Origin: Octopus sinensis
Lineage: Eukaryota
DNA: 64,000 nucleotides
Assembly (NCBI RefSeq): GCF_006345805.1
Contig: NC_043004.1
Coordinates: 55,676,001 to 55,740,000, forward strand
Direction: 5' to 3'
This document shows positions 36,901 through 39,900 of the stretch, piece after piece. The position numbers were made by a program, and so were the translations under genes. The stretch's first letter is position 1. The number at the start of each line of letters is the position of its first letter. The notes beneath the pieces were generated by a model. The model saw only the letters and a program-made list of their open reading frames with translations. It was not told the DNA's origin and searched no databases.

Positions 36901-39900
36901 GAGCCTGGTGCAGCCTTCTGGCTTCCCAGAACCCCGGTCGAACCGTCCAACCCATGCTAGCATGGAGAACGGACGTTAAACGACGATGATGATGATGATG
37001 ATGATGAGGCAAAGCATTACTAAATGCAAAGTCAGACATCCAAGATCTAGAATTATCGAGCTATTTTTTACTAGTTTCATCTCGTCTCTTTGTTTTCTCT
37101 CCGTGTTTGCAATATGGACAATTAAAGTGGTTTTAGAGTCAGATCATGGCTGCTATTTTCAGCATGGTGGTATCTCGTAGATAACCTAATTTATAATTTT
37201 AATAATTATTACCTTTGAAGGTTATTTTTTCCATGCTGACCACTTGATAAAATCATTATTTTATTTTTAAATTAACGATCTTATCCTTATTTCTATATAT
37301 ATATATATATATATATATATATATAACGTAAAGTGTACTAGCCATCTCAATGTGGCTAGCCACTGGGGGTGGGTGTTACTGAAGCTTTTAGCCCCAGGAT
37401 ATCATCGTCTCCAGCTGGATTTAGACACACTTTCTGTGCCCTTCTGATATTCGCAAAGGGAGGTCATCCCCTCTCGAAAACCTAAGTGATACATACGGAC
37501 TATAGTTTCGAGGTTTTTGCCTCTTGTCAACGTACGGTAATCACCGGTTTTCGATTGGAGAGAACTGTTTGCGAATATCTATTTAATGTTTTTCCCAGCA
37601 ACCACAGTCACTGATTTAGAAAAACTGTCTGAAAGCATTAATAAATCTCCGAACGAGATGTAAAGAGACAATGAGCTCTTGGGGCTAAAAGCTTCAGTAA
37701 CACCCACCCCCAGTGGCTAGCCACATTGAGATGGCTAGTACACTTTATGTTGTCGAGTGGTTACTGTTTACATCTCGTTCGGAGATTTATTAATGCTTAT
37801 ATATATATATATTCCAAAAATGTATAAAATATGAATTATATATATATATTATATATATATTCCAAAAATATATTATATATAAAACTGTGCCTTCACAGTG
37901 TTGTGTATATATATTATTTTGTTATTATATATATATATATATATTCCAAAAATGTATTATATATAAATATATCTATATCTATTTATATATACCCTCCCAC
38001 ACACACATATTGATAACTGTTCCAAAAGTACACACACATACATGTCAAAGTTGTCTTTCATCCTTTTGGGGTTGATAAAATAAGTATCAGTCAAGTATGG
38101 GGTCGATGTAACTGAATAGCCTCCTGCCACAAAATTCCAAGCCTTATGACTATACTCTTTACTTCTTTCGGTCATTTGACTGTGGCCATGCTGGAGCACC
38201 GCCTTTAATCGAGCAACTCGACCCCGGGACTTATTCTTTTGGAAGCCCAATACTTATTCTATCGGTCTCTTTTGCCGAACCGCTAAGTAATGGGGACATA
38301 AACACACCAGCATCGGTTGTCAAGCAATGCTAGGGGGACAAACACAGACACACACATGCATATATATATATACATATATACGACAGGCTTCTTTTCAGTT
38401 TCCGTCTACCAAATCCACTCACAAGGCTTTGGTTGGCTCGAGGCTATAGTAGAAGACACTTGCCTAAGGTGCCACGCAGTGGGACTCAACCTGGAACCAT
38501 GTGTGGTTGGTAAACAAGCTACTTACCACACAGCCACTCCTGCGCCTATAGTAGAAAGGATTATTACAAGAAGCTTTAAGTTGGTGAGTTGGTGGAATCG
38601 TTACCATGCTGGACAAAATACTTAGCAGAATTTCTTCCAGCTAATCACATTCTGTGTTCAAATGTTGTTGAAGTTAACTTTGCTTTACATCCTTTTGGGG
38701 TCAAAAAAGGTAAGAATCAGTTGAACATGGGGAAGTGGGTGGGGGGTAATGTAATTGAGTTTACCTATTTCTTTACTAACCACAAGGGGCTGAACACAGA
38801 GAGGACAAACAAGGACCAAGGACAGACAAAGGGATGAAGTCAATTGTATCGACCCCAGTGCGTAACTGGTACTTATTTAATCGACCCCAAAAGAATGAAA
38901 GGCAAAGTCGACCACGGCGGAATTTGAACTCGGAACGTAGCGGCAGACGAAATACCACTAAGAATTTCGCCCGGCGTGCTAATGTTTCAGTCAGCTTGCC
39001 GCCTTCCTATGTAATTGAGTTTACCCTCACCTCAAAACTGCTAGCCCAGCACTAAAACTTGAAACTATAATTACAAGCAGTTTTATGTTAAATAAAACCT
39101 TCAGATAAAGTCTTTCAGTTGACAAACACCAACATCCAATCAGGCTGACGTACAGAGATCACGAACTTACTTTAATTATTCCAACAAGAGTGGTTTTCAT
39201 CATCAACATTCCTTCAGTAAAGACAGAAATTGAATGGGTCAGACGAGCAACCTACAAAAATGAAAGAATCCACTGAATATGGAAGCACATTCTGAACAAA
39301 ATGTAATAAAAAAGGATAACATAATATCAGCTGTTTAACATGAATAATTCACAAAATATGGAAGCACAATCTAAGTGAAAAATCATCGTTTTCATGTTCT
39401 TATTTCATGCTGGCACAAGATGGATAGTTTGACAGGATCTGGCAAGCCAAAGGGCTGTGTTAGGCTCCTGTATCTGCATTGGCAATGTTTTTATGGCTTT
39501 ATGCCTTCCCTAATATCAAACATTCAACAAAGTGTACCGGGTGCGTTCTCCTATGGCACCAGCACTAACGAGGTTACCAAGTAACGTGCAAGACAAGATC
39601 CCTTGATGGAGTTGGGTGTTGAATCAAGGGAGATGGCCTTGTGTCAAGTATTGAGAGGCTGAAGTATGACAGGTAAAGGAGATACATGACTACCTCAGCA
39701 GATATGTAATTATCTCCATGGAAAGGCAAAAAAAAACAAAAAAAAACATGTATTTCTTAACACAAACTGCAACCTTGGAACTTAGAATGAACCTAATGCT
39801 TATTTACACTGTCCTGAGATGGGATCCTACAGTGGTGCCTTCAGCCAATTTGGTCCCTCATACATCTTGCTGACAAGCCAGCAGTTTCTGTTTCTAGATT

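Follow-up and report, generated by a model that had tools for sequence, protein, structure and literature searches.

Two groups of described elements come closest to the octopus repeat reported here. With metazoan non-LTR retrozymes it shares tandem units within a range of 150 to 450 bp, a type I hammerhead ribozyme with a short palindromic stem III, a GC content below 50%, the lack of a long open reading frame (ORF), and flanking duplications of >4 bp (PMC7229834; bioRxiv 10.64898/2026.07.22.740005); the mussel units measure 350 to 390 bp (same two sources). Penelope-like elements (PLEs) have been named as candidates for returning retrozymes to the genome (PMC7229834), the 2026 preprint describes the integration mechanism as “to be elucidated” (10.64898/2026.07.22.740005), and the main text of PMC7229834 never uses the word “inverted”. 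With the EN+ PLEs Penelope/Poseidon and Neptune it shares arms joined head to head, a tail that only one end carries, insertion into AT-rich or (TA)n DNA with duplications of about 10 bp, and a hammerhead that lies upstream of two ends and is read through uncut (PMC3846280, PMC8557442, PMC11167929). Purified Poseidon protein, for which a dimer of the RT-EN protein is predicted, cuts the two strands of AT-rich DNA and extends each of them, has two internal RNA sites, which bound the tail, as starting points for reverse transcription, and uses uncut RNA; the start site is described as the same on both target strands in vitro, with no assignment of strand to site in that account (PMC11167929).

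The octopus family differs from both groups. Whereas it belongs to a kind of element already known (PMC7229834; 10.64898/2026.07.22.740005), its main subfamilies have U3.G8 and U3-A8 hammerhead cores, it occurs mostly as dispersed head-to-head insertions of one to two units with fixed ends, which we call X and Y, and it is known here from sequence rather than from circles or cleavage. Unlike the EN+ PLEs, it has no RT-EN ORF and no homologous autonomous pLTR in the 110 PLE loci examined, and its tail between X and Y is 47 nt, longer than the 30 to 40 nt that are quoted, at one end only and together with 8- to 10-bp duplications, for inverted PLE insertions (PMC3846280, PMC8557442). What is new is the U3.G8 core and, on an element without an ORF, a counted rule that inverted insertions pair an X end with a Y end, with arms that are not nested in each other.

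Positions 37325 to 37798 of the window, the 64,000-nt stretch of Octopus sinensis DNA analyzed here, are one copy of a dispersed, protein-free hammerhead repeat of ~354 nt of the non-LTR retrozyme type, as the initial annotation had proposed; the repeat family, its tandem arrays and the type I hammerhead all support that assignment. The 474-bp insert is composed of two arms that meet head to head at 37664/37665, and (TA)n tracts on either side support the earlier suggestion that it entered a (TA)n target: (TA)16 at 37294 to 37325, a microsatellite in which any target-site duplication is hidden, and a second tract at 37799 to 37812. The 340-nt left arm (37325 to 37664, minus strand) has its 3′ end on the hammerhead strand at X (37325 ± 2) and continues past the predicted hammerhead cut into the unit before it. 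The 134-nt right arm (37665 to 37798) is hammerhead-sense on the plus strand and has its 3′ end at Y, closing with the 47-nt tail (37752 to 37798, plus strand). Neither arm is nested in the other, since the left one reaches further 5′ and the first 15 nt of the tail (37752 to 37766) occur in the right one only.

The two inverted repeats annotated previously, of 68 bp (37329 to 37396 and 37680 to 37747) and 32 bp (37633 to 37664 and 37767 to 37798), are indeed perfect. The inverted tail that had been placed at 37680 to 37798 is real but starts at 37665, with 37325 to 37411 and 37665 to 37751 pairing at 94% and four of the five mismatches falling within the first 15 nt. The 19 nt said to be mostly absent from the left copy comprise the 15 nt above and four that match 37325 to 37328 with one C/T change, and the unit length of 355 nt survives as 340+15. 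The copy is an X/Y insertion with a single hammerhead, likely a dead end.

The dispersed family is large, and the window copy is no product of chance. Its own 2.7-Gb genome holds at least 102 family matches with 40 of 2573 candidates scored, the near-full-length ones being 88 to 96% identical, and one 28-nt internal motif of the unit has 647 exact matches. True tandem arrays with a period of 354 to 357 nt are present in L031, L032 and other loci, so the end-to-start junction that had been read from the window copy alone is real, and a joined template of ~355 nt, tandem or circular, is borne out independently. GC content is 0.44, and coding capacity is nil: the longest ATG-initiated ORF encodes 77 amino acids, arrays of up to four units included. 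A tRNA-derived SINE was rejected, as a tRNA gene was found in none of four loci. A sister family, ~74% identical, has 352-nt units with a mean identity of 97% among its copies, and a third family type is located in L129. Three putative RNA runs have contigs that contain family pieces at low depth, contigs of a kind that cannot show strand, ends or circles.

Two relatives lie in the window itself. On the plus strand at 48382 to 49004 is a unit of ~364 nt with a canonical CUGAUGA hammerhead, a short inverted left arm and an 11-bp duplication (CATATTATATT). It matches the family by nhmmer with E values of 1.3e-5 and 2.2e-4, the reversed window giving no match, and its pairwise score of 128 compares with no more than 76 in any of 200 shuffles; if this is the unit to which the 37325 to 37798 copy was called unrelated, the two are in fact distant homologs. 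At 1708 to 1815 there is a miniature insertion of the same family, of the X/Y type, with a short Y-side arm (1721 to 1739), an X arm (1742 to 1803) and an 11-bp duplication (TCTCTAAAAAT). It sits inside another dispersed repeat (window ~1480 to 1870, L017 735 to 1103, and L029) that has a 3′ GC hairpin followed by CTAG and is presumably Helitron-like. Since that repeat carries the captured insertion in its copies, the retrozyme family must be older than the repeat's spread.

The minus-strand type I hammerhead with a palindromic stem III, a claim that we confirm, runs from 37536 to 37492. Stem I pairs 37536 to 37531 with 37497 to 37492, the core UUGACAA (U3-A8) occupies 37530 to 37524, stem II is GAGG/CCUC with a 6-nt loop, and GAAA leads into stem III (ACUAUAGU, 37506 to 37499), which is predicted to pair between two hammerheads, with the predicted cut after 37498. 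Rfam cmscan gave no hammerhead match in the window or the region. In the family, one hammerhead per unit is conserved in the sense that stems I and II covary and that GAAA and the U-H site are retained. The initial annotation had expected CUGACGA in other copies and held that a consensus without a CUGANGA core would speak against its reading. The nearest subfamilies do lack that core and have UUGACGA or UUGACAA instead, while related ones keep CUGAAGA or CUGAUGA. Exact pattern counts in the stem II context of the nearest subfamilies are 279 for UUGACGA, 124 for UUGACAA and 1 for CUGANGA, the lone copy being rejected as a true core because its C is flank sequence at a truncation.

A subfamily with a different stem II, from loci chosen without regard to the hammerhead, has a CUGAAGA or CCGAAGA core, and the core of the sister family is CUGAUGA. 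Positions 3 and 8 are pairable at the subfamily level as C-G, U-A or U.G, and C.A is found in scattered copies only, among them the single L129-type copy seen. A FastTree phylogeny built from 150 stretches, each of 215 nt, is ladder-like (C-G, U-A, U.G, then again U-A groups), although the order of core changes is a lead only, the tree being distantly rooted and without support values. The window copy falls within the UUGACGA (U3.G8) clade, so that A8 probably arose by a CpG change in this copy alone. Stem III differs by subfamily (ACUAUAGU, ACUGCAGU, ACUGCGGU, ACUCGAGU and ACUCGGGU), and each version is self-pairable over all 8 nt. Pairing of stem III in a dimer is predicted at P ≥0.7 in five of eight natural dimers and at P <0.1 in the other three, all of which have ACUAUAGU.

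The U3-A8 pair is a published natural hammerhead variant that is active in vitro (PMC3088659), and UUGANAA-type cores, common to those variants and to this family, are natural in the PLE hammerheads of Schistosoma (PMC4209133). In contrast to them, this family also has a U3.G8 wobble core, with 279 copies matching it exactly; our literature searches found no paper on a natural U3.G8 hammerhead. Such a core may be weak or dead as a ribozyme. Four loci (L141, L143, L159 and L217) have CCGAAGA (U4C) or worse-damaged cores with intact stems, possibly a cleavage-dead lineage, and together with the use of uncut templates (below) the CCGAAGA copies are compatible with poor or no cutting in some subfamilies. 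Hammerhead-like UUGAUAA or UUGAAAA motifs (U3-A8) were also seen in three autonomous PLE families of this genome (L166 to L171, L286 to L303, and L279), and U3-A8 may therefore be typical of the PLEs in it.

We counted the ends of copies at 152 distinct loci, gathered in three ways to give sets of 39 (by similarity to the window arm, and hence X-biased), 48 (by hammerhead patterns) and 65 (by an internal motif). Overlapping or duplicate loci had been removed, 15 ahead of the earlier count and 5 ahead of the internal-motif one. On the hammerhead strand, the 3′ ends of copies fall at two fixed sites ~47 nt apart, X at ~173 and Y at ~220 in a unit numbered from the predicted cut site. Inverted insertions make up 92 of the 152 loci, and the 3′ ends point outward in all 92. 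By end class, 75 are X/Y, 3 are Y/Y, none is X/X, and 14 have one damaged end, where the classes are BLAST boundaries accurate to several nucleotides and their ranges were fixed after the first 41 loci had been seen. Against a best-case frequency of 0.5 under independent choice of sites, 75 X/Y among 78 has p=3e-19, the three Y/Y insertions being the exceptions to the rule of one X and one Y. The two sets selected without regard to ends gave 57 X/Y, 2 Y/Y and no X/X among 68, and the sister family, selected for a Y end, gave 13 X/Y, 1 Y/Y and no X/X among 17. The 60 one-armed (direct) copies end at X in 40 cases, at Y in 15 and elsewhere in 5.

Duplications of ≥10 bp flank 87 of the 152 loci (68 of the 92 inverted and 19 of the 60 direct ones), compared with ~6% of mismatched flank pairs. 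Those of 9 to 16 bp outside (TA)n (n=63) peak at 12 bp and are 85% A+T, and (TA)4 is present in a flank at 53 of the 152 loci. The PLE-type insertion signature is thus present in full, with an inverted head-to-head arm, a one-ended tail, a short duplication and an AT-rich target, and its presence on a unit without an ORF points to mobilization by a PLE enzyme rather than to local growth of a satellite.

The family, its arrays, the two fixed 3′ ends, the one-X/one-Y rule, the ~12-bp duplications, the read-through of the cut site and the covarying structure are all observed. They are probably best explained by insertion of the protein-free repeat in trans by a Penelope-like RT/GIY-YIG enzyme, with twin priming from X and Y. 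The enzyme would cut an AT-rich target on its two strands at points ~12 bp apart, and each nicked strand would prime one cDNA, one from RNA site X and the other from site Y, after which the two nascent cDNAs would be joined head to head. X and Y would correspond to the two start sites described in vitro for the Poseidon PLE, the RNA intermediate would be an uncut multimer, either a linear read-through or circular, and the hammerhead would cut as a dimer in processing such multimers. Several points weigh against this account: the scan of 110 PLE loci (below) found no autonomous partner with a homologous pLTR, three insertions are Y/Y, 22 of the 38 X/Y insertions tested have nested arms, direct copies are flanked by a duplication in only 19 of 60 cases, the tail exceeds the length quoted for PLEs, and the in vitro start site was alike on the two target strands. 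Our search, which covered openly readable main texts, found no paper that states a twin-priming model for PLEs or retrozymes.

In LINE-1 twin priming, two target-primed cDNAs likewise give an inverted 5′ part and a target duplication. The second priming there is internal and variable, whereas in this family the two arms begin at separate sites, each of them fixed, and poly(A) is lacking.

The strongest competitor, which we nevertheless consider unlikely, is a single priming on a monomeric RNA circle, followed by rolling-circle reverse transcription and a template switch or fold-back, with an endonuclease trimming the far end to the second site. Self-priming was proposed for PLE inversions (PMC3846280), endonuclease resolution likewise figures in the PLE literature, some arm junctions here are palindromic with arm overlaps of up to 20 nt, and in 22 of the 38 X/Y insertions tested one arm is nested in the other, which is compatible with either fold-back or twin priming. 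In the remaining 16, as in the window copy, the arms are mutually non-nested, and because fold-back of one cDNA needs containment, it is excluded for these in its simple form. A random switch, the source of the inversion favored in the initial annotation, leaves the end of the second arm at the other fixed site without an explanation, and the genome-wide one-X/one-Y rule is better accounted for by two separate primings. In a comparison bearing on whether the two arms stem from one molecule, X arms were matched best by the Y arm of their own insertion in 10 of 30 cases, with a mean of 0.963 compared to 0.937 for other loci and 0.977 for the best other locus.

As for the template, 49 of the 103 arms that terminate at X or Y reach the cut site and 45 of these pass it by >8 nt, so the template of most long arms was not a linear cleaved monomer; 12 of the 103 exceed one unit in length. 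Cleaved RNA was rejected as the template on the count of arms stopping within 8 nt of the cut, 4 of 49, a figure read without a computed expectation, and four 5′ ends lie 2 to 3 nt upstream of the cut, inside stem III, and so are not cleaved ends. The initial annotation had left the choice between circular and multimeric RNA open; its end-to-start template stands, and some evidence favors a multimer whose units are non-identical over a monomer circle. Other animal retrozymes do have documented circles (PMC7229834), and natural monomers here fold stably as circles (z of −1.7 to −10.6, with 12 shuffles each), the hammerhead strand being the lower-energy strand in 15 of 15 circular folds. Across 13 natural monomers, 21 of 75 consensus pairs are altered on both sides, exceeding shuffle and slide controls, with the caveat that the structure was taken from the same alignment and that many of the changes go back to one event each, separating two clades. 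Against the monomer circle, of 20 pairs of neighboring tandem units within an insertion only 2 agree throughout a stretch of 165 nt, a count confounded by age and CpG decay and by several large differences that are junction artifacts. L031, a single insertion with a 12-bp duplication as its boundary, has three different variants of stem/loop II, each of them known from other loci as well, and this is more than one monomer circle could provide. For cases like L031 at least, we favor a multimer of non-identical units as the template.

Far less probable is that the unit is the pLTR of an autonomous PLE and that its copies are 5′-truncated products, with no independent retrozyme. The PLE-like architecture would fit, Xenopus retrozymes are related to pLTRs (bioRxiv 10.64898/2026.07.22.740005), and the tail of a 781-aa PLE family, which ends at two sites ahead of (TA)n, has a loosely similar CUC..GAG hairpin before its AU-rich end (judged by eye and unscored). 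The genome is PLE-rich, with at least 5029 GIY-YIG candidates and intact frames of 775 to 784 aa, and we sampled it by a GIY-YIG search in which 150 of those candidates were scored and by two protein searches, none of which yielded an autonomous partner. BLAST and profile scans detected no homologous pLTR in 110 PLE loci representing about ten ORF clusters, a small part of the candidates, and all profile matches in PLE loci looked like separate retrozyme insertions. Nor do the family loci have an RT plus GIY-YIG ORF between units: their arms run from unit into unit rather than into an ORF, no ORF in the arrays exceeds the length given above, and tblastn of 209 family and sister loci and the window found only PLE fragments scattered in the flanks. 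One candidate, a sister unit beside a 775-aa PLE ORF in L165, was rejected as that element's pLTR, being a separate insertion in (TA)n. The L165 element itself has the 775-aa RT-GIY-YIG frame after a 280-aa frame in another phase (1742 to 4818; possibly an intron or frameshift) and, within a long 3′ region, a hammerhead-like motif of its own.

A DNA-level element (MITE, foldback or satellite) with a dead relic of a hammerhead-like motif is scarcely credible and largely refuted already, for although the inverted ends, the departure from CUGANGA and the lack of an Rfam match would suit it, the inverted part is of variable length among copies, the 5′ ends fall at scattered positions, one-armed copies make up a third or more, the structure covaries, and the subfamilies all retain the capacity to pair at core positions 3 and 8 and in stem III.

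If twin priming by a PLE enzyme is right, the one-X/one-Y count joins the pair of start sites seen in vitro with the long-known inverted pLTR tailed at one end, and it predicts exact sites at which reverse transcription should start. The natural core series (C-G, U-A, U.G), with its self-complementary stems III, is a panel for probing the role of the hammerhead, and searches based on CUGANGA, as well as Rfam, overlook hammerhead families of this kind. A broader picture can be offered tentatively, as a possibility that we would not yet bet on: an old, diversifying superfamily of ORF-less ribozyme RNAs may parasitize PLE enzymes without descending from any present-day pLTR, in PLE integration generally an RT-EN dimer may prime the two target strands at obligately different RNA sites, and drift of the hammerhead from C3-G8 through U3-A8 to U3.G8 may tune cleavage down and so spare uncut multimers as templates.

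Several arrays were seen alongside the family. L215 (G000:C2:195844497-195845055) is a local array with an 88-nt period built from part of the unit. Within the window, 41422 to 44648 is a 3.2-kb GC-rich array of 62- to 63-nt and 40-nt units, with related, shorter arrays at 16494, 27906 and 36471, and 32638 to 33066 holds a 233-nt tandem duplication of another dispersed repeat.
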